DNA of 64,000 nt from Lytechinus pictus (GCF_037042905.1 NC_087245.1:10976001-11040000), one strand, 5' to 3'; counted from the stretch's first letter, positions 31,700 to 63,860 are shown. A program made the numbers and translations. Notes: generated by a model not told the origin, from the sequence alone.

Positions 31700-34400
31700 C
31701 AAACAGTGCAATAGTGCAATAAAAGTGACTTATCTTTTATTGCACAACATAATAGGAATATTACCAAAAAAGTAGATAGGGAAAGAAAAATTCAAATGAG
31801 AAAGTTATAATCATGTTGATAAAAGTGAAAGCGCAAGTGCAAGTGTGCGAGAGTGCAAGTGCGGGGGGGGGGATTGTAATATCGGTTGGTACGAAACACA
31901 CAGAGATTTTAGGTATTATATTGTATTTCTCTTCAAAACAGCCTTGAATTAATAAAGTGTAGAGCATAACTTAATGTCAGGTGATAAATTATTCCATAAA
32001 TCTGCACCGTGATGTCTAATTGATTTGTGTGCAATTATTAGTTTTGGATTTGTCAAATTAAATTTGTCAGAGTTTCGTGTTGGATAAGAGTGGATGGTGT
32101 TGTTGATTGTGAACATATTTTGAAAGGAAGGGGGAAGTATCCCCTTTTTGTATTTGAACATGAAGATAGCAGCTTGAAATTTATTTATATCTGAAATTTT
32201 CAATGTTCTTAGTTTAAAAAATAAAGGACTGGATCTAGCAAGATATTGTGATCCTGTACAAATGCGAACGGCTCTTTTTTGTAACAAGAAAATCGAATTA
32301 AGTTTTGTATTACCGCAGTTACCCCAAACCATGTTGCAATATGATATGTGAGGGAGAACCAAGACATTATAAAGAAGAAAAAGAGTTTTGGGAGGTAATA
32401 AGTATTTTAATTTGGAAATTATCCCAACACCTCTGGATACGGAAGTGGTGATTTTGGCGTAAATGATTATTCCACGATAAATTTTCATCAATAGTAACTC
32501 CCAAAAACTTTGAATGTTGTTTTTGTTGTAAGGTTACGCTGTCAATATTTATCGTTATTTCTTCGTTAACTTCACGGGTATTATAATGTTTAAAGTGCAT
32601 AAAATGTGTTTTGTTTATGTTTAAAGACAAATTTGTCGCATTTGAACCAAGTAGACACTTTACACAATTCATCATTTAAAGTAGATACTACAATTTCAAG
32701 TTTTGGTTGAGAATAAAAAATATTTGTATCATCTGCAAATAGGATAAAAGATAATAAGGGGGAAGTTTTCGATATATCATTGACGTATAATAGGAAAAGG
32801 AGCGGCCCCAAAATTGACCCCTGCGGCACACCACATTCTACAGTTTTTAAGGCTGAATCTATTCCATTAAATGTAACATATTGTTGTCTATTTGATAATT
32901 AATCTTCTATCCATCGATGTGCGTTGCCCCGTATTCCGTATAGATGTAGTTTATGAAGTAATATTTTGTGATTAGGTGTATCGAAAGCTTTGCTTAAATC
33001 CAAAAATATTGCAATAACATGTTCTTTGTTAGCAATCGCTTTTGTGATTTTGTCATAAATATTTACTAGTGCTAAGTCTGTCGAGTGATTTTTTCTAAAA
33101 CCGTATTGATTTGGGTTTAATAAATTATGCAAGTTTACAAAATTTTATAATCTTGTGTATATTATTTTATCTAAGATTTTTGATATGCTACAAAGAATAG
33201 AAATTGGGCGGTAATTACTTATTTCATGGGGGTCATCTTTTTTGTAGATTGGGGGTAACTTTTGCAATTTTGAGTAAATTCGGACAAATACCTGATGAAA
33301 TAGATTAATTAACAATATAACTTAATGGATCAACAATAGCATCATGAATAATTTCTTTAAGCATGGATGAACTTATCCTATCATGTCCTTGTGACTTACT
33401 AGAGTTTAAAGATTTTGTGATATTGATTATTTCAGTAGAGTTGGTGGGATTGAGAAAAAGAGAATGTTCGAATGGCGTTGAAATGAAATCAGTAAAATGG
33501 GCGTTGTTGCAATTACCTATTTGATTTGCTAGTTGGGGGCCGATGTTACTAAAAAGAGTTAAAGGACGAAGCATAAATGGATTGATCTGGGATTTTATCA
33601 CCGTGTAAAGTTAATTCATCTTCAGCATGTTCAGGTAATGGAGTATTTTTTCCCAATAATATCATTTATAACCCGCCACGTGGCCTTAGAATAAGCACTA
33701 ACTTTAGATAATTTGTCTGAATAATACATCTTTCGAGATATTCGTATCAGGTTTGTAAGTTTGTTACGATATTTCTTATATTTTTGTGTGTTTGTAGTTG
33801 TAGGTTTCTTTAAATGTAGTTTGTAAAGACTGTTTCTAGTATGAATTGATTTTAGAATCCCTTTAGTGATCCACGGGTTTTGAGCCTCTCTGGAATTTTG
33901 GCGCTTTCTTACAAATGGGACATTTTTATCGTAAAAATGCTGTAATTTAAGGTTAAATTTCTCATAAACAATATGCACGTTATTTTCACTGTAAACATCA
34001 TTCCAACTTTCTTCAATAAGATCCTGTTTAAATGATTCAAATCTTATTTCATTTCGAATTCGGAATTTTAAATTGTCGGAAACGTAAAAAGCAACACCAC
34101 CCCCTCTCCGTCCTACACGGTCAGCGCTAATCAAATAATATTTTGGTAAATTAAATAATGGAGGAGAATTTTCATTAAGCCAGGTTTCGCTTACACCAAT
34201 AACTGAAAATTGAAAATTGGTTGTCAACATTTTTGTTGAGGCTTCTAGAGTAAATATGTAAAAGGCTAAAGCTGTTTGATTTTGAAAACGAATCATTAAA
34301 TTCTGCCACTGTATAATATTTACTGCCATTGTTGAGTTGATCTATATCATGTCTGTGTTGTTGTCCATGTTAAGGGATGTGAGTTGGGAGTGCGTGCATG
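31700..34400 (-). mobile_element. Degenerate LINE (L2/CR1 group) ORF2: APE endonuclease plus reverse transcriptase
   Basis: Frameshifted ORFs contain VIGVSETWL, GGGVAFY, NPWITKGI, QYGFRKNHST, FLDLSKAFDT, PQGSILGPLLFLLYVND, LFADDT, KFLGVTID and YCNMVWG. Boundaries approximate. Confidence 0.92.
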
Positions 34401-34959: not shown

Positions 34960-37900
34960 ATGACTATATTAATGGACGGAATCTTTAAGGTATCATCTAT
35001 ATCTACGAGATGGGGAAATCTTTAATTTTGCCAATTCGATTTATATATTAAAACAATAAATTGTCGACATGACGAGTTACGCTATCGTCCACTATTATTT
35101 CGTCCTTGAAACATAATAAGTCGACTTCTCAAGACAACGTATCTTGACATTATTTTGTCGATAAACACCTTTTTTTATAAGTCAAGATAACATAGTTCAC
35201 CATGTAAACAAAATAAAGCATTGAGTCGACTTGGCAAAATAATGTATCTTGCTATCTCGTCAATAAGGGATGGAGTTATTACCCGTGATGTAATTGACAA
35301 GTATCTTGGGTAAGGCTAATTCCGTTCATGTTTTAACTTAAGAAGTTTATCAACCACAATATGAACATGTATTTGACGTTGTAATCACAATTTCGAATGT
35401 AGACTCACTGTTCGTGCTAATTCTCATTTTGTCGACAGAAGAAAAAGTACAGCCTTTTGCCGCTCTTTTTGCAATTGATTCCGAAAGAGAATCTGTCAAT
35501 CTGGATGAAGGGATACAAGACTAATGCGGTTGGCTCCAAATGCGCCCGAGAAATGAAGATAATTGCATTCACTCGTGATTTTAATCTACCCGAGGCTGCT
35601 TTGCCTATCTTGTCTGGTAGAGAGCTATCGATCTGCCTTCAAACTCCAGATGATGTCATTTACCTGACAGGGCACAGCGAGTAGGTTGCTGACATTGATT
35701 TTATTATCATTATTATTCAGAATTTCACAAAAATTAATGCGTAATTATTTTATATGTATAGACCCGACCTGCGTCATTCTGAATTTACCACCTCTTTTTC
35801 TAATCTAGATACTGTGGGCATCCATAAAAACGCCACTTTACATGCCTGTGTCAACGAACGCTGACTTCATAAGTGGGAGGCGGTTGTAGAATATTGCCCT
35901 CATTACTATAGCCTCAAATGACGGGTGTCAACAGTCGGTAACGTCCCCCAAATCTTCGATGTTCCTATAAAATTTATGGATAATTTAAACTATTTCCTAC
36001 TCTGAATGTACAAACATTTTATTTTGACCCAGAGTTCTTCCAGGTATTGTTGGACTCAGAATTATTATCCCTTCGGTTGCTATGTGTATGCATTACTTTC
36101 AACTTGTGTTGTACTGGGTTAAATACCTATATTTTGAGAGATTAGTGAAATGTAAATATGAATATTAATGTCCTTCCCAGGCAAGAACGTGAAGCTTTAT
36201 TTCGTCATCTCTCCCACCATCTCACGGCCCATATGTCACCTACTCATTTTGGAGCAGGCAGAGCAGGAATGATATATCATCCACCAAACCGAATGCATTC
36301 TAATGATTATGATCGTTATTATGGATTGTCAAAGGTAATATTACTTGTATCAAAATAATTTCAACAATCATATTTTTCATGCATCTCTCCCCTCTTTCCC
36401 TGAATTATGTAATTTTTTTAATAGCTTATTTAACTTTAATAATTACAACATGCATGCATATTTACCTCATCTTGTATTCAAAATGTTCGTCCAACAAAAT
36501 GTAATAGGCTATTCTTTATTTTGCATTAAAACTACCTTGCAGATAAATATGCACGTATATGGAAGTTTTAAGATTATCTTCCTGTAATTTTGTTGACCTT
36601 TATTTGTTTAAATGACTCAGTTGATTGCTACTGTAAATTGGAAGACCGTATGTATGTGCCTTCTGTTTGTCTGAATTTTAATTCATTTTTAAAGTATGCA
36701 TTTATTAAATAATTGAATTTCACAATCTTATTAATTCAATACTGTGCTTCATAGTCATGATAGTAAATTGTTGTAGGAGATGTAATGACCGAGGTAGAAC
36801 AGTGTAAATGTTTGAGTTGAAAATTTTCTTTCATCCATATTGATGGGGACACATAAAAGTATATAGTTTCGTAATTTTCATTGCCATTTTTTCTTAGAAA
36901 GTTTTGTCTTCTTGTTTCCCTTCATCACAGAGAGAGCCCGGGAGGGGGGGGGGGGGGCAGTCAAATATATTGCTGTACACACGCGTGACCCCCCCGTTTA
37001 AAGGGGTGTTTTTCAGTTTTGGACGCGGTCCGCGCGTGGACTCGTTAAGGGTATTAAAAACAACGGTTTTCAAGAAAAAGGGTGGTTTTGAAAGACTGGT
37101 CAATGGCCAATCGCGGGGTCAAACGTATTCAGGATATTTTTTTCCCAAAGCTTTTTTTTTTTAGACTAGCCAAACGTGTTAAGGGTATTTATTTATTTAT
37201 TTATTTATTATTAATTTATTTATTTCAATATATTTAACCAGGGTAGCCCACTCAGCAATAAACTGGTCTCCCGTGGGGCCCTGGAATACATGATAAAAAC
37301 AAGTATAAAAACATTTAAATACATATGAAATATACACAGAAATATTCTAAATAACTTAACTCATATCATAACAGAAAACAGAGTAGCAAGCATACGGCAT
37401 CTTTAAAAACATGATACTAATTAACAAATTACATACAAAGCAATACATATAGATAAAATAAATTAGATAGACATAGAAAAGTTGATTTCAAATTAAAAGG
37501 CAATAATAAAATTTAAAATTTAAAAAGATGCACTTTCAGTTTCTGTTTAAAGATTGAAAGAGATTTTGACTGTTTCAAATTAAATGGCAAGTTGTTCCAA
37601 AGTAAAATCGCTGAGTAAGATAAAGAGTGTTTAAACATTTCGGTATGAGTTTTTGGGGTGATCAAATTATCTTTTGCTGCATATCTAGTGTTAAAACAAT
37701 GAGAATCACTTGCAAAAGTAAACACATTACGATAGAATTCCGATGACAGACCATTGATACATCTATACATAAAAATACACTTGAAATAGGTAACGCGATC
37801 GTTGAAGGGGAGCCATTGGAGTTCACGAAACATTTCTTTTGAGGGGGTATAAAAATTACATTTTAGGATTAATCTAGCCGCTCTTTTTTTAAGTTTGATT

Positions 37901-40900
37901 ATACGATCTGTGTGCATATTGAAACGCAACCCCCAGATTTCACAGCAATAATCAAGGTGTGATTGGACTAAACATAGGTATAGAGTGTTGAGGGTATTTT
38001 GGTCAACATAAGGCCTAACCCTTCTTAGCATACTTAGGCTGGCATACACCTTTTTACATACATTATCAACTTGGTATGACCAAGATAGGTGTTGATCAAT
38101 TATGACTCCAAGACATTTTATCGTTGTACACCGTTCTATAACATCTCCATTAAATTTGGTAATTACATTTTCCATAGCAATATTAGATAGCTTTCGGGGT
38201 GTCCCTATTAACATAAACGTTGTTTTATCCGTGTTAAGTTTTAGTTTATTTACGTTTAACCATTCTTTTAAGGAACTCATATCATCTTGAAGCTTATATT
38301 GAATATCTTGTGCAGACGTACTGTGAACATATAATGTGGTGTCGTCTGCGTACATGGTAATACTACAATATTTCAGGGTATGAACCAAATCGTCGATGTA
38401 TATTAAGAAAAGGAGCGGCCCAAGGACTGACCCTTGTGGTACTCCTAGCGAAACAGATTGCTCATCTGAGAGAGTGCCTCGTACAACTACTCTTTGTGTT
38501 CTATCATTGAGATAAGAATTAAACCACGTAATAACTTTGTCTGAACATCCAATACGACGTAATTTGACTAACATTACCTGAGTGTCGACAGTGTCCAACG
38601 CACGTTTTAGATCAAATTAAATCGCACCTATTGTTTCCCCAATGTCAATGAAGCGTAACCATTGGTCTGTAAGCGACCCCAGTGCTGCAGAGGTCGAATG
38701 ACCGGGTCTAAAACCGAACTATGTTTTTCCCCCAAGTTTTTTTCCCAGAGTTCATATTTTGGCGACAACTTGTTTGGGGGCCAAATTGTGTTAATAAAGC
38801 CCGCGAAAAACTTGTTTAGGGGTTGATTTTGCACACAGAGAAAAAAACTCGTTAGGGGGTGTTTTGAAATAATTTGGTCACGCGTGTGTACAGCAGTACA
38901 TTTGACTGCCTCCCCCCCCCCCCCAGGAGAGAGAGAGTTTTTTTGTATGTAGGTGTAGCACGTCTTTGTAATAATTCCAAATGTAAATTAGTGGGTGCTG
39001 GATCCTGGTGAGTACAGAGGATTGTGGAGTCATGCCCTTAAATTCCTCCCGGTACCACGAGCGTAAAATATTTCCCAGAGACTCGTGTGTTAAAATGGCA
39101 CTGTTAACAAAATCATAAAAAATAAAGATGGGGTTAGAGGGTCGAATGTTTACCACCAGTGGATAGGTTACATGTTTGACATTCCATATCTGACCGGAAA
39201 ATGGTACTTCGACCAGCTCGTTTTAAAAATAGATCGGCATTTATGAAGACATCTCCTGACGGGATCAAATTCATCACCTGAAACAGTAATGTAGCCCTAA
39301 TTATTCTGCCAGTCAAAAATAGTTCAAAAGTCATCGATATTTCATCCCGGTTTAGGCAATGGAAGTTCTGTTATTGACTTCCCTATAATCAGTGATTGAT
39401 GACCAATCATATTCACACACTTTTGTCAATCAACTACAGGGGCGGATCCAGCCCTCGCCCGGGATTTTTTTTCAGCCATATTTCCCCGATCAGCCGCTCG
39501 AAGATGATTTTTGGTTTCTTTGAAGGGGTAGTCCTATTAGTCACTTCTTAGCTTTATTCTTATAAATCAACATAGATATATATAATATCATATATCCTTA
39601 TATATATAATGCGAGTGCGAAGCGCGAGCAATTTTTTGTGTGGAAATCTTATGTATTTTTTCCTAAAATGTGAACATTCTGTGCAATGTTTGTTATCCTG
39701 AAAAAGATGTGTATGCAACTAAATAATTACAACGAACACGATGCGCGAGCAAAAATGAACTGATGAAAAAGGTACCTGTTAAAGACTGCTTGCAGTTAGC
39801 CATGAAGACGTTACATATTTTTTTTTTTTTTTAATCAAATAATGCGAGCGCGGATTTTTTTTGGCATTTTTACCTAAAGAATGGGAATTCTAAGTACTTT
39901 TTTTTATAACTTAAGCAGAATAGGTATAAAACTGAACATGCGAGCGCTAAGCGCGAGCGGAAAATTTCGAGATTTAGACCTACTGAACGAGGCACTCTAT
40001 ACATGTTATGTAAACCATGAAAAGGATGAGTAATTGGGGATCTTCCTTACATTAATAATGCGAGCGCAAAGCGCGAGCAGAAAATTTTTATATACGTTTT
40101 GAACTGATCGAAAAGGTACCTGTTAAGGACTGCTTGCACTTAGCCATGAAGACGTTACATATTCTAACAATCAAATAATGCGAGCGCGAAGCGCGAGCTG
40201 CAAAATTTTGACATTTCTACATAAAGAATGGAACATTTTAATCAATTTTTTGTAATCGTGAACAGGATAGCTATATAACTAAACAATTGATGCGAGCGCG
40301 AAGCGCGAGCGGAAAAAAAATCGAGATTTACACCTAAAAACGGGACACTCTATGACTAATAGGGGATCTTCCTACATGAATGATGCGAGCACAAAGTGCG
40401 AGCAGAAAATTTTTGATATTTTGTGATCTGAAACTGGATAATGATTTACATAGAGAGAAAGTTGAGTATCTGAATAAACCTGCGCGCGTGTTTCATATTT
40501 AGACCTAGAATCCAGCCATAATAAATAATCTTTTATCATGAAAATTAAAGCGAGCGCGAAGCGCGAGCTTAAACTATTCGATATTCCGATCTGAAAAAAA
40601 GAGTAAATTTCAGCTCTATATTTCAAGCACTTCCTATTCCTCTTGCTAAGCGCGAGATGAAACAAAAATGACAATTAAATTATTAAATTAATATCTTATT
40701 CATTAATGCCTAATGAGGGCGCGAAATCTGATGAAATTATGGCCTGAAAACTGGACATTTTTTGTAATTATAAATAGGATGCATCAGTTAATATATTTGA
40801 ACCATTAATGCGAGCACAAATTGTGAGCCAAATTTTTTTATAAACTATGTAATGTAATTTATATTTTGATTAATAAAGATTGAAAGAAAATAAAAAAAAT

Positions 40901-43900
40901 AAACTATCATGAAAAGGGGACTTAAGAGACATACATAACTCGCCAATCAAAATGCGAGCGTGCAGCGCTAGCTGATACGTTTTGAAAATCAGTCCTGAAA
41001 AGGGATATTTTGAAAACTTTAAGGAATACACGAAAATAATAGGTACCTGATAAATCAAAATTTGCGAGCGCGCAGCGCGAGCAAAAAATGTTAATATTCA
41101 GACTATAAAACTGACATTTTTACAGAGCACTTTTTAAGAATCAATTGTAAATCACATAAAATAATGAAAGTTCGGTTTCCGAGGTGAAATATGTGTTGTA
41201 TATTGACTTGACTTGATATTTAAACTCCATATTGAGCAAGATATGAAAATCACCTAACAGGCAATGCGAGCGCGAAGCGCGAGCGAAAATTTTATATATT
41301 GACATGAAAGATTCTTTTTATTTTACAAGTCTTCTTATTTTATTCACTCGTATTCCTCCTCTTCTTTCTCCTCTTTCCCTCCTTTTTTCTTTTTTTTTTC
41401 TTCCCCTTTTTTCTTTTTTTTGCTCTGCCAATAGGGGGGGGGGGGCCCCTCGGCCCCCCCCGGATCCGCCTATGAACTATAATTGGAATGGGTTAGGTCG
41501 AATGAATGCATTTCGCCTTCCTGTTGTAATTAGGCTCGCGACACCTGCCAAGCTTATTGTTACTTATCGGGCTCCATCATGTATTTCTTTATGCTACATT
41601 ATATCAATTAATTGTATTCCATCAGGTCTGCATTACGTGGGTCTGCAAGTTCTTTCTTGTTTCTTTTTCCCTCCTTTCCTTTTTATTTTTATATAAAACA
41701 AATTACTTTTCATTATAATGCATTCCTGGCTGTAAAGACTTGCCCTGTGTTTTGAAACTGACTTTGAAATTAAATTGATCGAAATACCGATAAATGTTTT
41801 CTCAAAGATTTTCTGTGAGGGCTAGCATGCCTCTTGGCAATAGTATTGCATTTTACTTTAACAGGCCCTGGCCTATGGATATCCATTTTTACCCTCTTCT
41901 TTTTTTTCTATCATTTTACTTATTTATATCTAATTATTCGAATTATATTTTTGTATTTACATTGTACGATTTGTATGTATTCAAGGCCGAAAAGATAATA
42001 ATGTGTAAATATGATGTAATTATTATTATTACTATCATTATTATCACCATTATTATTATTATCATTATCATTATTATTAGCATTATTATTACGTTTGGTT
42101 TGAGGGGAAATTGTAGTTTCGTGCGATAAAAAAACCACTTGTACATATTAGAAAATAAAGATATTGATTCTTTTCCAGGGCGTCCCCAAGCGCGCAAGAA
42201 GTAACACAAATCTTCTTGAGAAGGAGATGTACTTTCCAAGACCTATAGAACAAAATGAGAGCGTCGAACCTGACTACACATATGTTAAGAGTAAGGAGCT
42301 CTTAGATAATGAAATGGAGAAGGAAAGCGTCTACGGTGAAGAATACGGATCAGTCTATGAGAGCATACCTTACTCATTTCCCTCGCGATCTCTACCCCCT
42401 GTACCGCCCAAAGATTGCAGAGCCAAGAATAGGCCTGGTGGACGAGTATTGGGATGCGGCTGCCGCCTAAGACCAAGGAGTGAACAGAGTATTCTGTTTC
42501 CAGACAACATCCCGGAGGATAAAAATGAATGCAACTTCGATATAATTTCCGAGGGCAGTTCGGTGGACAGGGTAGAGACCCTGAGGCCAATTAGAGAGCC
42601 TGAAGCCAACATAGCCTATGGAAGCGACACACCTGAATATCTAGGCGCATTGAGATCGAAGGAAGAATCTCCATTGTGTGGGAGTCCATCGAATCTTGAG
42701 TTCGTCGAGTAAGTGTTGTACTTTTTCCATCTTTTTATTCGAATGATGAATATATAGTGTTTTACAATTCGCTTTCCATACACTCCCGATCACACGCACA
42801 CCCTCACCCACATACATAAGCACACAGGCACATACCCCCACATACATAAGCACACAGGCACATACCCCCACATACATAAGCACACAGGCACATACCCCCA
42901 CACACTTGCACACCCAACGTACACTCATATTTGGCACACAACCGCACCCAACCATACACCTCCACACACTCAAAAACACTGTCACCGGGCCGGCATAAAC
43001 CACCCCAGGCACTAAACAAGTCCATATCTCTTGATATGTTTTTTCGTTTACTCGATGTATTGTAACTTTCTCGCATACTGCTCGTCTTCACTTTGTAAAT
43101 GTATAATTTGGTTATAGATTGCCATGCTGAGGTGGACCTTTGGCATGCACTCCAAAATAATGATTCAGGAAGTTTTCGCAACAGCAACCATGGCAACGCG
43201 GACGGGAATAACACCCCCACAGCTAATGCATTGAATATACCAGTCAAATGACGGTCTTTGTCAAAGGTGGTGAACCAGAACAGCAGTTTTGTCTTAAGTT
43301 TCGGAACTAAGGAAAAAAATTAACTGCCATTTGTCCAGAATCACGGACAAAACTGATGCTCTGATTCACAAACTCTCGACAAAGACTGATTTGAAATGAA
43401 AGGCACTTGACAATACATATTTTGTGTTCCCGAAGACGTCGTGTATTTTTGAAAGAGAAATCTCGTAATTACAACACGACTCTTAGTCTTAATCTGTTTT
43501 TACAAGAACATCGAATCTTACGGAAACAGAACATCTTTATGTATAAACTGTAGATTGTCAAAAGTGAGGTAGTGTGCAATGTTTCGCCGACTCTATTATA
43601 CTTTTCATTTTGTTTTCGTATTAGGTTATATACTGCAACAGTAGGCCAAAAATTGGCAAGCAGGCTGTCTGGAACATAATCTACAAAATTTTAGGCCTAC
43701 ATTAATTTATTTCATGCAAATTGGTGTAAACTGATTATGCTAATTTATGCATAATTAGTATGCAAAATCATACCTATTCCTCTATATATTACATTGTATT
43801 TGCAATTTCTTATGTATTTATCTGTTTTGGGGACCTTTTGTTTTCATTGTTTTTTCATTGCTTTGTCGGGAACTCTTTTGAGATCATAAAAAGCATAAAG

Positions 43901-46900
43901 TAAAGCATAAATCTATTTAGACCAGCAAAACAAAAAATTATCATACATTTATCATTATTGGTTGAAAACACAGTTTGCATTGACTTTGTACACGAAATCA
44001 CTTGTTTGAGCAATTTTTGGTCTGTCATGCACTTACAAAATGTTGCATAATTTCAAAACAGTGTACCCGGGCGTCGCAAATTTGGTCTCAAAAGATGCGC
44101 AAAAACTTAAAAATAAAAAGTCGGCGAGCGACGCAGTCAAAAAATTTCACGCGGCGAAAATATTGCGCGAATCGTTGAGGGGGGGGGGGGGCCTCCGAGG
44201 TCCCCCCGGCCTAGATATGGTTAAAATTCGCAAAAATTGAGCTCCCATGATTTTGTATTCAGGTAACAAATATTGTTCTGAACACATTCTTATTCGATTC
44301 TTTTTCTAGTTTATTAATTAAGGTAACCTTTAAATACAATCCTAAATAAGATTAATTTAAGATTTTATCTAAAGGTTAATTTCATTCTAAGTTATCATTC
44401 CACATATTCAGGACCTTGATGTAAAACAGTGTTTTTATACTGATCTTGTGTTTTTCCTGAATAAATATTTTTCAATCAATCAAAATATATTTTCAAGTTG
44501 TTATTGAAAATATAAGAATGACGTTTAATATAAACCTCATATTTTCAATAACACTTAAAACAAAATATCGAATGATAAGAACTTAGAATGAAATTAAATT
44601 TAATCAAATTAAACTACCAACCTTGCCGTCTTCCCTCCACCATCAGAACGTTCCGAAGACAACATTTCAAAAGGCGCCACACTATCACCTTAAGTAAACC
44701 GACTATGAACTGGAAAGCTGTTCGACTTAGCTATGTGAAAGACGAAATGTTAATGTAAGTATTACGGAAGTATGAATATAGCGGCAATCGCATAAAGCTT
44801 TTTTGTACATCTAAAACTACTTTTCTTTTTCCTTTTTAACTTTACTTTACGATGTAATTTTTCATTTGAGAGAATTGTAACCTTTCCTATGCACTAGGAA
44901 ATCTAGATAAAATGGGTTGAGCGTAGTAATTTTAATCAATTGAAAAAAAGTTTTTTTTTTTTTTCGTAGATGACGGATGAATTTTTTAAACTTATAGTTC
45001 ATTTCGTTTTGGTTATCATTGTCTCTGCAATTCACCCTCTTCACCGATTGTTATTTTCTTGGAATGATACGATTTTCTTTGCTAATGACTATATATAATG
45101 TAGATATAACGTTATGATACGCAGTTACTTTTGATAAATTTGAATACAGGATTGCAGGGCTCCCTGATAACTTGTACAACGAACTTCATGTTGGTGATGT
45201 AATAACGAAGGTAAACAACAACGCTCTTCCATTCAAAGACCGATTCTACGAGCTCATTGAGTCAACTAACAGTGATGAGGTGAGAAGACTTTCAATTGTA
45301 GCATGTTTAGCAACATTGGATTTTCTTTAACCAACTTGACAGGACGTTCCGCCCCAGGACCAAAATCCAATTGAAACCAGTTGGATTTCCAACTGGTTTC
45401 AATTGGTTTCAATTAGTTTCAACTGGTTTCAATTGGTTTTAACTGGAAAATAACAATTTCCAGTTGAAACCAATTGAAACCAGTTGGGCAACTGGAAATC
45501 CTAACTGGAACCCGTTGGGCAACTGGAAATCCTAACTGGAACCAGTTGGGTAACTGGAAATGACTTCCAACTGGAAATGATTTCTAACTGGAACCAGTTG
45601 GGTAACTTGAAATGACTTCCAACTGGAAATGATTTCTAACTGGAACCAGTTGGGTAACTGGAAATCCTAACTGGAACCAGTTGGGTAACTGGAAATGACT
45701 TCCAACTGGAAATGATTTCTAACAGGAACCAGTTGGGTAACTGGAAATGACTTCCAACAGGAAATGATTTCTAACTGGAACCAGTTTGGTAACTGGAAAT
45801 CCTAACTGGAACCAGTTGGGTAACTGGAAATGACTTCCAACTGGAAATGATTTCTAACTGGAACCAGTTGGGTAACTGGAAATGACTTCCAACTGGAAAT
45901 GATTTCTAACTGGAACCAGTTGGGTAACTGGAAATGACTTCCAACTGGAAATGATTTCTAACTGGAACCAGTTGGGTAACTGGAAATCCTAACTGGAACC
46001 AGTTGGGTAACTGGAAATCCTAACTGGAACCAGTTGGGTAACTGGAAATGACTTCCAACTGGAAATGATTTCTAACTGGAACCAGTTGGGTAACTGGAAA
46101 TGACTTCCAACTGGAAATGATTTCTAACTGGAACCAGTTGGGTAACTGGAAATCCTAACTGGAACCAGTTGGGTAACTGGAAATGACTTCCAACTGGAAA
46201 TGATTTCTAACAGGAACCAGTTGGGTAACTGGAAATGACTTCCAACAGGAAATGATTTCTAACTGGAACCAGTTGGGTAACTGGAAATCCTAACTGGAAC
46301 CAGTTGGGTAACTGGAAATCCTAACTGGATCCAGTTGGGTAACTGGAAATGATTTCCAATTGGTTTCCAATTGGAAATTTTCCAGTTACCCAACTGGTTC
46401 CAATTGAAACCAGTTAATTTGCATATTATCTGCCAGTGTGCACAGATTAATGTTTTATGTGATTCATCATCATTTAAAATGTATCTATTTAATTCTTTTC
46501 TATTTCAAGTACCATACTTGTTTCAGATAAGTGTTTAGAATGCTTAGCAGTGAAAACCATGTTCATAAATGTTATAGATTATAATTAAAACAGATTATAA
46601 GATAATTAGTACACCACTAACTGTTACCAAATTATATCAAATACAAATACATATATTTGAAGATCTTTCATGAAAATATATATACATTATGAAAGTCTAT
46701 TTATCAATGCCCTTTACATTGGTATTATAGACATATAGCACTGCTTCTTTGTTGGCATGAGCAATAGTTAGTGCAAAATCTAATTAATTTGTAACTAATT
46801 AAGTCATTCTAACTGGAAGTTCCAATTGGATCCAGTTGGAAACCAATTAGTTTCAACTGGTTCCAGTTGAAACCAGTTGCCTCCAATTGGTTTCAACTGG

Positions 46901-49315
46901 AACCAATTGAAACCAGTTACCTCCAATTTGATTCAACTGGTTTTAATAGGGAAATTGGAACAACTGGAACCATGGACCTATTTTATGCTGGAACCAATTG
47001 AAACCAGTTGCCAACTGGTTGCTTAATTAGTTTCAACTGGAACCAATTGAAAACCAATTGCCAACTGGTTCCAGTTGCCCAATTGGTTTTAACTGGAACC
47101 AGTTGGCAACTGGTTTCAATTGGTTCCAGTTGTTCCAATTTCCCTATTGAAACCAGTTGGCCAACTGGTTTCAATTGGTTTTGCTCTAATTGGTTTCAAC
47201 TGGATTTTGGTCCTGGGGCCCTTTCACACGGTAAAAAATTGTAATTTGAATTTTGATTTCAGTGAAAAATAAGGCTCATGACGAATATTTAGCACGTGTG
47301 AAACCAGACCCGAACATGATTAGAATCACGAACGCTAATCACAGTCACAATTACAATAGCAATCATCATTACAATGATGATTCAAGATTCACGTGTGAAA
47401 AGGCCCGTTGATGATTGCAATTCGTCTTTAGAATCATCGGACCTTGCACGCTCACTCGAAATCTGTAATTTGAATTTGAATTCCCAGGCGTAGGCGGTAT
47501 GCGTCCTTGGTGACTTGTCAATCAAAGCACTGCATCGATACGACGAGTGCATGACAATTGTATATCTACCATGTCTACGGAAAAGCTTGAAAGGACACGT
47601 AAGCTCCACCCCAAAAGATCTTTTGGAGGTCAAGCCTTTAACACGTAAAATTTGTACCGTAATTTGAATGAAAATTAACTGGAATTCACCTCCGGAGTAG
47701 AATTTGAATTCGTGATTGTGATTAGCGTTCGTGATTCAAGTTTGGTTTCACACGTGTTAAAATATTAGCCTTATTTTTCACTGGAATCATTCTAATTACA
47801 ATTTTTACCGTGTGAAAGGTGATTAGAGACCTGCACCTAAATGATATTTCTTTTTCCCAATTCAGGTGGAAGTTGAAATTTCCAGAGTACCCCATGGATG
47901 CTTTTGTCACGTGACTCTCAAAGTCATTGGCGGAATTGAGTTTCTTGGACTTTCATTTTCAGACTGCGAGAAACAGGGTGTAGAGGTGAATTCCATTCTT
48001 TACACTTATTATTGTCAAAAATTGATACATATTGGATGTATATAGACCTAAGCACGTGTGTATAGCTAACGTGCATTTTTTCATGAACCGTGGAGGGGAA
48101 AGAACACATTCTCTTTTGACAGAATTCAGCATTGCCATATACCACCACACCCGAAAAGAAATTAATGATACCCCCTGTCTTCGATATCTGTAACCTGATA
48201 AAATTACTTTCACATGTTACAAACCTTGTTTTTAATTGATCACACGTGCAAGTAGTTAACTTTAAATGTTAATTTAAATCTGGTATCCTCAATAATGATT
48301 TAAATAGAATTAGGTAGCACCACAAGTTGATTGTGACGTGTAAAATATATTTGACATGTGGAAACACTAGCTTTTTCTAACTTAATACGAATTTCGTTTG
48401 TTTTGAATATGACATAAGATTTCATCGTACAAACAGAATTCGTTTCCTTTCTTCAAACTTTAAAATAGATAACCGCCATAGATGAAGATGGATTGGTGTT
48501 CAAGAGCCACCAACTCCAGTATTCCTGTCCTGTTGGGGTAAAAGACTCAACTAAGAGGGTCAACTGGGGTCTAGTGGAGATCAACCAAAAACCAGTACCC
48601 CTCGATAGTTCGAAACAACAGGTAGACATGGAAGCCATCTAAATTTGGAATAAAACATGAAAAGTTAAAAGCGCCGTAAAAATAGGACTGTAAGAACGTT
48701 TTGTGACATGGCACGTTAGTATATTCTTCTGGGGTTTGAAGATACGTTTGATAGACATATAAAACATAGATCTATTTTTTGTTGCAGTGTAAAGTTGGAG
48801 AGATGCGGCGTATGTAAAGCGCATAGAGTAGATTGAGTTGACTATGCGCTATTATATTAGCACCGGTTTATTAATATTATTATTATATTATTATTTATTA
48901 CAAACTCCAAATAATCATGGAATCACTGTTCATGTCTCAAGCAACTTCCATAGAATGGATAATGTTGAATATTTAAGTGATTATATTATTCCATATGGCA
49001 TTCAGATCAATTAGGCAAGTGGGAAATTATTTACTTCGATTTAATTTGACTTGTTTGTTTATTTCATTGTAGTTTTCTGGAAGGAAATAGATAGTTATCA
49101 GGGATACATTCCAGCATATATTTGAATCGATTTGATTTTGGGGTCTTTATTTGTGCGCTAAACTCCAATGGTATTTTGTGCCACTATTCCAAACCATTCT
49201 GTATTACATTTCACGTTCCTAGGTTGAGTATCTTCTTCGTAATGCAGGGACCGATCTTGCTCTTGTACTTCTTCCTATGGACCTTATTCTTCATCTACGA
49301 GATTCTGTACTCTGA
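34960..49315 (+). CDS. PH-domain / tandem PDZ-like adaptor protein (~519 aa). Exons 34960-34989, 35439-35680, 36181-36334, 42179-42708, 44647-44754, 45150-45279, 47866-47985, 48469-48621, 49223-49315
   Basis: Nine exons with canonical splice sites and consistent phases (0,2,0,2,2,0,0,0) total 1560 nt with no internal stop. The N-terminus is PH-like (ILMDGIFKKK...SICLQTPDDVIYLTGHSEQEREALFRHL). The C-terminus is PDZ-like (LHVGDVITKVNN...VEVEISRVPHG; FLGLSF...ITAIDEDG...NWGLVEINQKPV). The first exon is the least certain. Confidence 0.75.
36937..38927. mobile_element. Non-autonomous TIR element (MULE-like) interrupted by a LINE
   Basis: TIRs CCCGGG(G)nCAGTCAAATATATTGCTGTACACACGCGTGACC / GGTCACGCGTGTGTACAGCAGTACATTTGACTGCC(C)nAGG, with AGAGAGAG on both flanks. 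Confidence 0.75.
37187..38627 (-). mobile_element. 5'-truncated LINE (L2/CR1 group) with RT ORF 37513-38598
   Basis: Uninterrupted 361-aa frame with GVPQGSVLGPLLFLIYIDD, MYADDT, KCLGVIID, DYCCEIWG and LWNNLP. The 3' UTR ends in an (AAAT)n tail at ~37187-37225. Confidence 0.93.
39437..41474. mobile_element. 2-kb non-autonomous TIR element with 5-bp TSD and periodic GCGAGCGCGAAGCGCGAGC motifs
   Basis: AACTA|CAGGGGCGGATCC...GGATCCGCCTATG|AACTA, with the internal motif recurring at roughly 100-170-bp spacing. Confidence 0.8.
42807..42905. repeat. 30-bp minisatellite, 3 copies
   Basis: CACATACATAAGCACACAGGCACATACCCC repeated three times. Confidence 0.85.
45353..47217. mobile_element. Non-autonomous CACTA/EnSpm-like element containing an AACTGGAA minisatellite
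   Basis: GC|CCCAGGACCAAAATCCA...TGGATTTTGGTCCTGGG|GC, i.e. CCC termini with a 2-bp TSD. Dense subterminal AACTGG/CCAGTT repeats, with the array at ~45480-46410. Confidence 0.8.
47220..47819. mobile_element. Palindromic MITE
   Basis: Long TIRs CCTTTCACACGGTAAAAAATTGTAAT...AATAAGGCT...CACGTGTGAAACCA mirrored at the right end. Confidence 0.8.
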
Positions 49316-49962
49316 AGACACAGCACGATGGGCTACATCCCATATACAATGGCGCAGGTCTTTGAAGACAAATTTTGTTTGCGAACACGATTTCTTGATC
49401 AACCAGAAAGAAGTGGGCAATATTGTTAATTATATGATTGTATTTGCTAGCTTATATCTTAGACTTTTAGGTCTGTAAAATTATGTGATTCTGCATCTGT
49501 AAATTTAAGTTTAATAGTCGAGACATGCGGTCCTTACCAGAATTAGTATGAAAGTATTGGATGAAAAGCTAGATAAAAATAATATGTGACCTGCTACCCC
49601 AAAACAAACAATAAGTCACCCATAATGAATTGATACATTTATTGAGTTTGAAAAAAAATCCAAGCTTTAAAAAGATGTATGACTTGTCAAACTGGATCAA
49701 CGATAACCCAGATATTCAAGTACTAAATTGGATAAACTAATCGAGAACTTCAAAAAAAGAGAAGATAACAACAACAAAAGTTCGGGGTTCAATCAAACTT
49801 GAAATGTGCACACTGTGCAATCTCAGTGAAACGTCCAAGCTGTCCTCAAAACATGTGTCAAAGAAACGGTTGTATCTTGTTTAAGTTGTTTTTCATTAAA
49901 CTTTACAACTTGAAATTAAATAATAATAAATAAAAATTACATTTCTTTAGCGCATAATACAC

Positions 49963-50180
49963 AAGGGCCCGAATTCACAAAGGTCGACTAAAGTTATGAC
50001 CGGGGTATAACTCAGCCGTGGGTTAAATTTAGCACCGGGTGCTAAAGTTAGTCCATGGATTAGTTAGTCCACCGTTTGTGAATAGCGCGGTGGACTAACT
50101 TTATACCCCGGTATTAGTTAACCCCCGACTAAATTTAACCCCGGTATAACTTTAGTCGACCTTTGTGAATTCGGGCCCTT
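49963..50180. mobile_element. Palindromic MITE
   Basis: AAGGGCCCGAATTCACAAAGGTCGACTAAAGTTAT / ATAACTTTAGTCGACCTTTGTGAATTCGGGCCCTT. Confidence 0.85.
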
Positions 50181-50349
50181 GGTCTCTATGCGCTTCACAT
50201 ATACATGATTTAAATATATCAAATTATATGGGCATTGAACAAAAAATATACAATTAATCAATTGTTAAACAAGTATGTTTTAAGTGCAGTCTTAATGGAT
50301 GGTGGGTGCAGTCCGGATGACAAGTGGGAGAGTTCCAGAGGGTTGCAGC

Positions 50350-51041
50350 CCCGGGTGGGGGGGGGGGGGGCACTCAGTATATAATGCATAGTGGGTATGT
50401 GCCGCGGAGGGGACCCCCATTTTTACACTCAAATTTCCGTTCCAAGGCATACCGTTTTTGTCTTATTGAGAAAAAGAACAAAGAAAGCCGCTCCAAAGCA
50501 TAGCATTTTATCTTCTTCATACTTCCGTAATACTTACATTAACATTTCGTCTTTCACATAGCTAAGTCGAACAGCTTTCCAGTTCATAGTCGGTTTACTT
50601 AAGGTGATAGTGTGGCGCCTTTTGAAATGTTGTCTTCGGAACGTTCTGATGGTGGAGGGAAGACGGCAAGGTTGGTAGTTTAATTTGATTAAATATTTTC
50701 CATTACGCCGTTCCGGCCGTATTGATCTGCTACAATGAGCCGCAGTTTTGGTGAAAAGCGGCCGCGCAGCGCTGTCCGACCATCGCATCTGCGCTAGCGC
50801 ACCCGGCGCCCGTAGCGCCGGGCTATAGCTGCATGCACGTATGCCCGTTCCATAGGGATGAATACGCAATCACACGCAGGCGACCCGTTCCAAGGACCCC
50901 CGTTTTCACAAACATTTGTCGTTCCGAAGCCCGTTTCGAGGACCCTCCTTTTTACAATAAGCCCGTTCCAAGGCCCCCGTTTTTTGTCTCGCCCGCGGCA
51001 CATACCCACTAATTTTTTGGTCGAGTGCCCCCCCCCCCGGG
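50350..51041. mobile_element. TIR element (MULE-like) carrying a captured host exon, inserted in an old LINE remnant (~50200-51290)
   Basis: TIRs CCCGGG(G)nCACTC...AGTGGGTATGTGCCGCGG / CCGCGGCACATACCCACT...GAGTG(C)nGGG with an imperfect GGTTGCAGC-type TSD. Internal 50516-50694 is the reverse complement of 44598-44776. Confidence 0.8.
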
Positions 51042-51369
51042 TTGCGCAGCATTGAAGGTGAAGGAGCTATATGACCGTAGTACTGTCTTAAAACGAGGAA
51101 CCTGAAGGAGATGCTTATTCTGTGACCTGAGAGCACGGGAAGGAGTGTAGGTGTTGATGAGTTCAGAAAGATATGAAGGGCTTGAACCAGAAAGAGACTT
51201 GTAAGTGATGAGGAGGATCTTAAAGCGAATCCGCTTGTCAATTGGAGGCCAGTGGAGGTTACGAAAGGAGGGATGAGTTAGAAGTCAGACCAGTAGCTCC
51301 AGTGGCGTACATGTACCTAGGATTTTTCACAGGGGGGGCAAAACCGTCCGCCCAAAAATTTGACAAGCC

Positions 51370-51422
<53 letters not shown>

Positions 51423-54400
51423 TCTTCCAGATCGTCAGGGGGGGGGGGGGGGGCACTAAAGGTCTTCAAGCTCGTCAGGGGGGGGCAATATTTTAAAGTC
51501 AATATTCAATTTTGTATATAGTGTAAATACATTTGTGTTACAGTGTTTATATATAATTTCATAGAATTTTGCTGATTATTTTACTCTACTTATATCATAT
51601 TACCCTTGTATAAAATTTTGATAGGGGGTCTACATTTTACAAGCTTTGCTTTTTAGTAGGCCCCTCCACTTTTTTCAATTCATTGCTACGTTTCAATCCT
51701 GCATGTGTTATGCATTTTTTCAGTGTTAAAATGATTTATTATAAATGTACTTTGATGATTGTGGAATATGAATATATCAATAAATAAATAAAAATAAATA
51801 AAACAAAGAACCTTTTCTGGCGAATTACGATTGGTTTATGGTGGCTGGTCACATAAACTGGAATACCCGTGCAAAAGAATGACAAAATAAGAAGTCTAGA
51901 AAAAGTGTTTTTATCCTTATTGTTTTCGTACGAGGCGTCAACATGATCCCATTATAATTATATGTTCGATGTAAGATACACATTTTAAATTTTGAACATC
52001 AAACAGTTTATATAGAGTTAGCTGATGTCATCATTTTAAATCATGCTTATTCTCTATTCACCCCTATTCATGACTGCTCTTATATGTGAATTCATTTGAG
52101 TTAATAAAGATTTACATTATTTTCGCCGTATTATGCACTGTATACATGGTATGTTTCCCTTGTCCATTTATACGTATATCATTTGAGTTGAATATGAAGG
52201 AATTCGTGCCTTGAAACAGTGTAACCAGTTGCAAATGGTGCGAATGCAGCGTATTTGTATCAATTTAATTGTATTTTGTTTTATGCAACAGGACAGAATC
52301 TAAAAAGACATTTATACTAAGATGAATATTCGGCTTGATCAAAACAAAATAAATTTGTAGTGATTGTGCATTGGCATAAAATGATTATATTGATCGATTA
52401 AGACATCATGATATGTATAATGTACTCTAAAGTGAACCGAATAATTTCGTATTGTTCATTATTTTGCAGTGTGTTCAATGTATAAATAACTTTTGAAGCT
52501 TCTAGAGTATTTTCAAGTGGTGTTCATTGTTTATACACAGAAAATACTCACATTGCGTGAGACGTGCTATAGTTATTGCAATGATTATACAAAATCTGAC
52601 AGAGTATCAGCTTTATCAGACCTAATCTGAACCCTCCATTAATCAAGAAGTAATATCTTCAAGTACTCTGGAGTAGTGAGAAGGTCTAGATAGTTTTAGA
52701 AGGGGTATTCCTTTTGCTTCAATGAGATGACAACTTCAAAATAATTTGGGGTGGATTTATATTAATTCGTGCAAATACTATAACCATGCATAGAAATGTC
52801 CAGATATGAAAAGTGATTGTATTCGATTGTGAATATTAATAATCATCGTAGTTTTAACACTGTACTTGAAATGTGAGGATTCTGAATCGAATGATCTAAT
52901 GGGATATTTTAAAAAATCTGATGCGGAGAGTTAATCCTATGCATTAATGGAACGGAAAAAAGGTTATGACAGAATATCAGCCTAAAATCTTCACATAAAC
53001 ACACCCTCACCCCCACTCTCGCAAACGCACAGCAACACACGCGAATGCGCGCACTCATCATTGATGACCATAAAAAGAATTTAGTCGTTCATCAAATGTG
53101 AACATGAATTGTGGCAGACTAAATTCCTATAGTAGGTATATTTGACTAGACCCCCACTTTTTTCCAAAACCGTGTACAAAAACGTAAAAATGACCATACG
53201 ATTGTGATTTTTTGCATGGTCAGCCCCCCCCCCCCCCACTTTGAAAACCGTTCCGCGGACCCTGACTAGTTGTATGTTTTTTGTGCAGAAAAATATATCA
53301 GGACTGTGCCTCAATTTGAAATACAGAATGTAAGCAAGGCAATGTGAATAATCATCAGTATAAAGAAATTGTTTTATTTAACCCTTTCTCGTATTATATC
53401 ATTTGATATGACATCGTGTTATGTGGTATTCGATTATTTCAATTCTTTAACATTAAGCATTTATGAGTGTGTGCGAGTATGTTTGTGTATAGGAAAGGGA
53501 GAGATGATACATGTAGCAGTGGCGTAATGAGCGAAAAGGGGGAAAAAAGGGGGTTGGGGCAGTCATGGCGTATGGGGAAAACTTAATATAAAGATGCGAA
53601 CGAGAAAAAATCTTGCCCTTTTTAATAAATTGACTTTTGGGATAGATTTGGACATTAACACCTAGATAACGATAATATATAATAATAAATAATTATAATA
53701 TAGAGTATTTCTAAAGCGCCAAATCCACATTGATTATGTGCTCAAGGCGCTGAGAAAAGGAAGAAAAATTAAATGGAGAATACAACCTTTTTCCTTTCCA
53801 TTCCCCTCTCCTTTCTTGGTTGAGAAACCTTTTTTTTTTGGGGGGGAGGGGGAAGGACCTGAAGCCCCCATCCTTACGCCTGTTGATGATAGAGAGAGAG
53901 AGGAGGGGTTAGAGGTAGATGGATACAGATGGGGAGGGGCATTAGTTTCTATAACTGGTTTCTATCTTAAAATACATGTACAGTGTTGAATTAAGAATGA
54001 TCTCTCCGTGACAAATATTTGTTCAGGATTAAAAACACACACTTTATTGAGATGAGGTTCATAGTGAAATACAGACAATTCAACATGTAGAATGATTGTC
54101 ACAACAAACTGACCTTAAACAGACAGTAAAATGTATAAAATGATTACTATTTACAGCCAATAAAGTAGATCATCAAAGAAGCAAACGATGGAGCTTTTTT
54201 TAATCACTTTTTTGGTTTAAGTTTCCTTTCATATTCAATCCTAACATATTAGACAAACTTTGGCCACACTTTACTCTGATGCAAAAACGGCAAAAAGTCA
54301 AGAAATGAATAAATCGCACTTCACATCCTAATCTGGTGAACAACAATGGAAAAAAGTCAAAGGCGTATAATTTAAAGAAAGAAATAGGATGGGGCTAATG

Positions 54401-58016: not shown

Positions 58017-63860
<5,844 letters not shown>

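Follow-up and report, generated by a model that had tools for sequence, protein, structure and literature searches.

Pack-MULEs of plants are Mutator-like elements with long TIRs, TSDs of 9–11 bp and a MULE transposase as partner, a TSD length that MULEs share in general, whereas piggyBac elements duplicate TTAA. Two further kinds of product are related to the subject of this work: one includes the templated insertions of the polymerase-theta or SD-MMEJ type, in which a deletion is accompanied by an insert copied from nearby DNA through joints of 2–5 nt, and the other includes the filler-DNA derivatives of Ds and P elements, which are the classical examples of abortive gap repair. In animals, 370 Pack-TIRs were reported from 100 genomes by Tan et al. 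(2021, Nat Commun 12:4280; PMC8277862), five of them from the purple sea urchin assembly strPur2, and the view of the initial annotation, namely that captures of this type are mainly documented in plants, therefore has to be given up. The five sea urchin cases are assigned to the families piggyBac3_SP, piggyBac-N7, -N8 and -N10_SP, and are labelled “Urchin” in Supplementary Data 2 and, in the same five rows, “Squirrel” in Supplementary Data 1 (PMC8277862). According to these authors, single-copy Pack-TIRs arise mostly by transposition-independent gap filling, as judged by a cis bias, microhomologies with a median of 2 bp, gaps with a median of 4.6% of the element, the internal position of the breakpoints and an origin after insertion of the element (PMC8277862). 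For instance, the article describes a coding exon that was co-opted into a 3′ UTR along with neighbouring parts of its introns, and a gene fragment that was duplicated into the 3′ UTR of its own gene, with a remark on possible antisense regulation (PMC8277862). Among the articles listed by a search of the sea urchin literature, none went beyond Tan et al. 2021, and none was specific to Lytechinus pictus or to the MITE family considered here.

The present case is found in a stretch of 64,000 nucleotides from L. pictus (GCF_037042905.1 NC_087245.1:10976001-11040000), referred to as the window, in which an element with CCCGGG ends at 50350-51041 encloses a copy of a coding exon from a nearby gene. 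A repeat search of 43000-52500 reported one long inverted pair, in which 50516-50694 is the reverse complement of 44598-44776 over 179 nt, with 100% complementarity and with the arms 5739 nt apart. When 44500-44880 was compared with the 812-Mb L. pictus assembly, two candidates were obtained, one being the locus itself over all 381 nt and the other a match of 179 nt at 100% on the opposite strand, so that these 179 nt are present exactly twice in the genome, and the flanks of the parental segment, 44500-44597 (98 nt) and 44777-44880 (104 nt), are unique. Chance was considered as the origin of the match and rejected, given 179 perfect nucleotides.

The donor segment, 44598-44776 on the plus strand, as delimited by the repeat and genome searches, comprises 49 nt of intron, which are pyrimidine-rich and end in the AG at 44645-44646, the 108-nt coding exon at 44647-44754, and 22 nt of the following intron, which start with GTAAGT. 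In the captured copy, 50516-50694, these parts are inverted with respect to the gene; coordinates transferred from the 100% match place the exon copy at 50538-50645 on the minus strand, its acceptor AG at 50647-50646 and its GTAAGT donor at 50537-50532. Thus, both the exact 179-bp reverse complement and the composition of its source (pyrimidine tract, AG, 108-nt exon and GTAAGT), which the initial annotation had derived by manual comparison and proposed to check by self-comparison, hold to the nucleotide (179/179).

The donor gene has its coding span at 35505-49315 on the plus strand. Its protein, P0001, was retrieved with the open reading frame at 42152-42712 as the sole protein returned, at 99% identity, and corresponds to the NCBI entry “uncharacterized protein LOC135155544 [Lytechinus pictus]” of 487 aa. 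By tblastn on the window, P0001 maps to the plus strand in eight pieces, taken as eight coding exons, from 35505 to the TGA stop codon at 49313-49315. The captured exon encodes residues 288-323, lies between an AG on its upstream side and a GTAAGT on its downstream side, and is the fourth coding exon in the NCBI model rather than exon 5, as it had been numbered. Only one of its frames is open, and this frame leaves 1 nt at the start and 2 nt at the end as parts of split codons, from which it follows that the exon is symmetric (phase 2-2), as had been claimed. The peptide aligns with the homologues P0002 of Strongylocentrotus purpuratus and P0004 of Diadema setosum, which indicates that the exon is old and that the gene is the donor. 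Concerning the designation of this gene as “PH-PDZ”, its first half is not confirmed, no PH match having been found by Pfam on the full P0001; a PDZ domain is weakly indicated, with PDZ_6 at an E-value of 0.0035, below the cut-off, for the complete protein, and with PDZ hints alone, at E-values of 0.05-0.11, for single-exon reading frames. Judged from its sequence, the donor is an echinoid-conserved, PDZ-like gene, and the captured exon, by extrapolation from the weak Pfam alignments, probably encodes the N-terminal part of the PDZ-like domain. An AlphaFold model of P0001, built from a 4-sequence alignment, reached a mean pLDDT of 34.4, too poor for a fold search.

The recipient belongs to a MITE family of very high abundance, for which a genome search with 50350-51041 gave 2057 first-look candidates, 40 of which were scored and yielded 101 matching pieces. 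The scored other copies match two portions of the query, positions 1-168 and 344-692, between which they have about 42 nt of a different sequence. These two portions correspond to the left arm (50350-50515), which contains the CCCGGG terminus, a G-run, the TIR and two 51-nt internal repeat units and matches family positions 1-168 at 91-98%, and to the right arm (50695-51041), which ends in a C-run plus CCCGGG and matches family positions 344-692 at 92-97%. In an alignment of 29 other copies (L002-L030), none carries the 179-nt insert, and 26 have at its site a canonical stretch of about 50 nt, of which about 42 nt are replaced in the window; the family alignment that had been proposed as a check thus shows the insert to be absent from the family consensus. 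The canonical stretch belongs to a tandem array in which a 51-nt unit occurs three times; it also contains a polypurine run of 21 nt, which is among the sequence replaced by the copy. The three remaining copies (L008, L023 and L015) have deletions or a rearrangement of their own in this same tandem-repeat region, suggesting local instability. The left arm in the window also holds an extra AT at 50510-50511, 6 nt to the left of the junction, which is absent from the other copies and is not explained by a repair copy.

The TIR of the family consists of about 20 nt plus a 19-nt block, and the CCCGGG termini continue into a homopolymer G-run, which varies from about 4 to about 25 nt among L002-L030 (the corresponding ends in the window being 50350-50372 and 51020-51041), so that the exact terminus of the MITE is ambiguous. 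A homopolymer G-run is in itself an unusual feature for the end of a TIR element. As scored by a script, a credible perfect TSD of 8 bp is present in 18 of the 29 other copies and one with a single mismatch in three; three more are perfect but lie in G/C runs and are unreliable, three copies have none, and two offer no anchor. TSDs of 8 bp fit hAT, P, Merlin and other superfamilies and exclude canonical piggyBac (TTAA) and typical MULE elements (9–11 bp). Accordingly, a piggyBac-type MITE disagrees with the observed TSD length, although the CCC...GGG termini resemble those of piggyBac, and a hAT-derived MITE agrees with it, both by the family TSDs and by the empty-site comparison for this copy. 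When a hAT partner was sought with PF05699 (62 matches in the genome, 30 loci fetched), the MITE ends were present in none of the 30 hAT-dimerisation-domain loci with 1.5-kb flanks, the sole hit being an 18-nt G-run. The motif CCGTT occurs nine times in the MITE against an expectation of 1.1, and none of 2000 shuffles reaches nine, but the enrichment is not diagnostic of a superfamily. The same family was also seen in runs X2 and X3 of organism B, with a summed contig depth of about 1.28 million against about 50–1,100 in flanking bins (50376-50516, 50846-51033), and would accordingly be shared between the congeners or active in both.

The MITE is in turn inserted in an interspersed repeat, of which it interrupts the left half (about 50181-50349) from the right (51042-51299). 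This host repeat gave 1553 first-look candidates, and the best 40, which were scored, include full-length copies at 89-96%. Both flanks of the MITE align to contiguous paralogues, and two uninterrupted paralogues (L033 and L034) read through the insertion point without the element, bearing out the earlier description of an insertion into an older repeat. The comparison with these empty sites defines the left TSD as the 8 bp GTTGCAGC at 50342-50349 and the right TSD, at 51041-51050, as a decayed version with a 2-bp GC insertion (GTTGC-GC-AGC), whose first G is shared with the end of the element. From the stop codon to the start of the MITE there are 1,035 nt, somewhat less than the distance of about 1.2 kb given previously.

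Between this stop codon and the MITE, poly(A) signals on the plus strand cluster at 49895-49934. One RNA contig (record 6 of run X1, see below) reaches 1139 nt past the exon, equivalent to the 495 nt of coding sequence that remain plus 644 nt, which would put the end of the mRNA near 49959; judged by the length of this contig, the main mRNA thus probably stops about 390 nt short of the MITE. An inverted repeat with 82-nt arms (76% complementary, 128 nt apart) lies at 49926-50217, between the poly(A) signals and the MITE, and is probably another MITE, given the high multi-copy depth in bins 50047-50187 of X1-X3. Other repeats are scattered around the locus: further short repeats ending in long G-runs at 44171-44191, 51431-51451 and 51458-51485, and a poly-A/K-rich stretch at about 51380-51440, together suggest the presence of other homopolymer-bearing repeat families. 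The intron between the coding exons that end at 45279 and begin near 47866 contains a foldback-like element of about 1.9 kb (45351-47219), with TIRs of 35 nt (45351-45385 and 47185-47219, 91% complementary) and an interior of long arrays, in which CCAGTTGG-like units are repeated at spacings of 31, 52 and 83 nt. Long stop-free stretches on the minus strand of the large intron, at 31952-34341 and 37516-38616, the latter a 367-aa reading frame with a YADD motif, resemble LINE reverse-transcriptase fragments, and a 114-aa stop-free stretch at 59486-59827, also on the minus strand, which we take to resemble a trypsin-like serine protease exon, would belong to a neighbouring gene on the opposite strand.

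Comparison of the window with a canonical MITE copy and with the parental segment allows both junctions to be read. The MITE is intact up to the CTTCTT at the left junction, where TT (50516-50517) is common to element and parent, and at the right junction AT (50693-50694) is common to parent and element; these are the junction microhomologies whose definition from a family alignment had been suggested. In net terms, the element lost about 42 nt and acquired about 175 nt. Breakpoint pairs drawn at random, 20,000 in number, from a natural copy and the parental locus have a microhomology of at least 2 nt at both junctions in a fraction of 0.026. Both breakpoints fall inside the element, about 0.30 of the way along its 558 nt, and the gap corresponds to about 7.5% of its length. 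Seen as a possible template-switch product or templated insertion, the locus thus shows microhomology at both joints, an inverted template 5.7 kb away, and loss of about 42 nt from the recipient.

The locus can also be placed against the definition of Pack-TIRs in Methods section 14 of Tan et al. 2021 (PMC8277862). For the 100–5000 bp of non-TE sequence asked for between two parts of one TIR element, there are 179 nt between arms covering family positions 1-168 and 344-692; for the arms, which should reach at least 10 bp of the termini, both CCCGGG ends and the TIRs align with the 29 copies; and the parent, to be unique with at least 90% identity and a length ratio of 80–120%, is matched at 100% over 179/179 nt, in one of only two genomic places. 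The flanks of the parent, which should be free of TEs over about 100 bp, have no other genomic match over 98 and 104 nt, and the captured piece is distinguished from an intronless retrocopy by its 49 and 22 nt of intron. In contrast, the TSD of 8 bp and the TIR of about 20 nt plus a 19-nt block differ from the 9–11-bp TSDs and long TIRs of Pack-MULEs, and a single copy of the captured sequence outside the gene shows no transposition or amplification of the loaded element. The case therefore agrees with every Pack-TIR criterion tested and, by TSD, TIR and copy number, is not a Pack-MULE, and the label “Pack-MULE-like”, under which it was first described, does not suit an exon-bearing element for which no Mutator link was found, that exists as a single copy with 8-bp TSDs and bears no sign of ever having moved.

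The relative age of element and insert can be estimated from their divergence. Outside the insert and the homopolymer ends, the MITE copy differs from a consensus of the 28 copies most similar to it at 10 of 469 sites (2.1%), corresponding to about 7 events because three of the differences are adjacent pairs; the other copies range from 0.4% to 3.4% from the consensus. In contrast, the insert shows no difference from the donor over 179 nt. If it were as old as the element, the Poisson probability of zero changes in the copy alone would be about 0.02–0.07, and smaller still once substitutions on the parental side are included. These figures and the decay of the TSD suggest that the exon was captured by an element already in place, albeit from few substitutions and with gene conversion as a process able to mimic the same pattern; the earlier claim of a very recent event is borne out in this relative sense.

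Sequencing data were brought in by aligning four runs to 50000-51400 at a likeness of at least 96%. Run X1 consists of Logan contigs from organism A; its RNA label is a guess, and it may share a project with the assembly. Record 6 of this run is a contig of 1248 nt, the last 109 nt of which are exact to 50537-50645 and the rest unlike the stretch; it resembles the spliced mRNA of the donor gene, supporting the boundary of the exon at its donor site and showing that X1 contains RNA. Record 7, a contig of 117 nt with a depth of 14.5, is identical to the window over 50616-50732, reaching 79 and 38 nt to the two sides of the right junction, and includes a private A at 50702, which accounts for 14.5 of a depth of 35.3 at this position, the very depth of record 7. 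A contig that crosses the right junction with a base private to this copy provides independent support for the junction and indicates that the copy is transcribed. The left flank is joined to the end of the element by record 4 (191 nt, depth 12.7), which differs from the assembly at 50276, and X1 has a depth of 0 at 51081-51268.

Towards the left end of the insert, the depth of 13.3 in bin 50517-50563 of X1 equals the contribution of record 6 (23.2 × 27/47), which leaves the copied intron on the donor side and the left junction without any retained contig. Indeed, the left junction (50515/50516) is not covered in any of the four runs aligned, and X1 has no contig past the copied GTAAGT donor. 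Raw RNA reads of X21, of which about 6% of the run was read, have a depth of 0 over 50517-50657, as have the DNA contigs of X2 and X3 from organism B at the threshold of at least 96%, at which the exon itself is likewise without match. In X2 and X3, neither of which has a contig over a junction, the canonical form of the MITE dominates at very high depth, and its canonical sequence appears as a loose end behind 50509.

The RNA contig thus extends over the right arm of the MITE, the copied intron tail and the exon copy, and its depth exceeds half of that seen for the exon in the gene itself; transcription of the region is low and implies no function. With the mRNA ending before the MITE, the RNA over the right junction would be read-through, antisense or an independent transcript. 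Whether the captured exon is anything but inert, either through splicing of a minus-strand RNA at the copied donor (a newborn chimeric exon) or as a nascent hairpin or antisense regulator pairing with the parental exon over 108–179 perfect bp, is a rather doubtful proposition; the asymmetry of RNA that extends up to the copied GTAAGT and not past it would fit the chimeric-exon and the antisense or hairpin readings. As a separate observation, the frame of the exon copy on the minus strand stays open for about 74 more codons upstream into the right arm of the MITE, giving a stop-free stretch of 111 aa at 50537-50869, which is probably due to chance and would be relevant if the minus strand were transcribed.

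Taken together, intact termini, a small internal deletion, a nearby inverted template, joints of 2 nt and a single copy lead to template-switch gap filling as the explanation, and a templated repair copy made in place, in general terms, is very probable; the original proposal, in which gap repair copied the fragment from a template close by, is upheld by the exact donor at 5.7 kb, the two microhomologies and the replaced element sequence. More specifically, we favour, with some reserve, a single-copy Pack-TIR that was made in place by a transposase-independent break and template-switch gap filling. Under this scheme, an old resident MITE copy with its 8-bp TSD would have undergone a break or a stalled fork in the region of the 51-nt tandem repeats and polypurine run; a broken or nascent 3′ end may then have annealed via 2 nt (TT) to the complementary strand of DNA 5.7 kb away, whereupon about 175 nt comprising intron tail, exon and donor site would have been copied before the element was rejoined via 2 nt (AT), with a loss of about 42 nt. 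We infer the type of repair pathway (FoSTeS/MMBIR, SDSA or TMEJ), the transposase-free break and the occurrence of the event in place from these traces. The main competitor, possible but on balance unlikely, is a transposase-dependent abortive gap repair, in which the MITE was excised and the gap refilled from the sister chromatid, with synthesis slipping to the exon and back. It would give the same product of intact termini, internal deletion, nearby filler and microhomology, and a transposase may have been active, in that copies at 0.4–1% from the consensus make recent mobility possible; moreover, Tan et al. 2021 keep abortive gap repair for a minority of single-copy cases (PMC8277862). However, a T breaks the left G-run of this copy, whose TSD has also decayed, the breakpoints fall in a tandem-repeat and polypurine tract that is rearranged in three of the 29 other copies, thereby favouring an internal fragile site, and no autonomous partner was found, the MITE ends being missing from all 30 hAT loci compared. 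A spontaneous break or stalled fork is therefore preferred to excision by a transposase, a choice that sequence alone cannot decide.

The remaining explanations depart further from a repair copy made in place. An old capture, contemporary with the insertion of the MITE and kept identical by gene conversion, draws on the ability of inverted repeats a few kilobases apart to convert each other and on the fact that the age argument rests on 0/179 differences only, but 179 nt are, as a matter of general knowledge, short for efficient conversion, and the identity stops sharply at the microhomologies without any gradient, which makes this account improbable. An assembly artefact, namely an inverted copy made by a chimeric read or a mis-join, would be in line with the absence of the left junction from the contigs of the four runs and with the low representation of the region, as the best run holds a share of 0.44 of the sampled words of 50100-51300 and no listed run reaches half. 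Against it, record 7 bridges the right junction without a difference and with the locus-specific base at 50702, X1 departs from the assembly at 50276 and so does not simply repeat the same consensus, and so clean a replacement, flanked by microhomology on both sides, is what one expects of repair and not of an assembler; we regard an artefact as very improbable. Even less credit is due to a mobile Pack element that captured the exon elsewhere or earlier and then transposed to its present site: gene sequence between complete TIRs fits the Pack definition, and local hopping could bring an element near its donor, but this is the only copy in the genome, its TSD is decayed and its arms are 2.1% diverged around an insert identical to the donor, and the donor is 5.7 kb away, as opposed to the distal parents of multicopy Pack-TIRs (PMC8277862). 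Finally, an exon derived from the transposon and exonised in the gene, with the 179 nt native to the element family, was rejected and has next to no probability, for the sequence is carried by none of the 29 family copies, is held by the genome in two places, and encodes a peptide conserved in S. purpuratus and D. setosum.

Clearly, this kind of event has already been catalogued in animals, sea urchins included, and no new principle is involved. The value of the locus lies rather in its being a clean and very young case. On the favoured reading of template-switch repair, a complete symmetric exon was copied into a transposon together with its two splice sites, and one can still read both joints, the donor close by and the part of the element that was deleted, which makes the locus a useful worked case for separating repair in place from transposition. 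Further interest would be added if the copy were spliced into a new transcript, or gave rise to antisense or small RNAs against the parent, for which there are hints only.

When compared with the closest known systems, the locus shares with plant Pack-MULEs the structure of a non-autonomous TIR element with an intron-containing gene fragment, but Pack-MULEs are often multicopy, interchromosomal and combine several genes, in contrast to the single copy, single fragment, cis donor and 8-bp TSD found here. Products of FoSTeS/MMBIR (Hastings et al. 2009, PMC2621351) resemble it in combining a deletion with a nearby templated insertion, sometimes inverted, at microhomologies of 2–5 nt; these, like the insertions attributed to polymerase theta, are generic rearrangements, whereas the recipient in the present case is, by coincidence, a MITE, and for this reason the repair product looks like a Pack element. 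With hpRNA loci and siRNA sources derived from Pack-MULEs (maize preprint 10.1101/777037), it has in common that a gene fragment is present as an inverted copy, which could pair with the parental transcript; in the present case, however, the main mRNA probably stops about 390 nt short of the element. The best counterpart is provided by the animal single-copy Pack-TIRs of Tan et al. (PMC8277862), with which the locus shares a gene piece within one TIR element, a unique nearby parent, microhomology of about 2 bp, a small internal gap and a capture after insertion, and some of which are transcribed, as is this one. From the five sea urchin members of that catalogue, which belong to piggyBac*_SP families, it differs in species, in family and in its 8-bp TSD (PMC8277862), and from the Pack-TIRs described there in general by consisting of a complete symmetric exon with both splice sites, placed in antisense orientation about 1 kb downstream of its own gene (PMC8277862).
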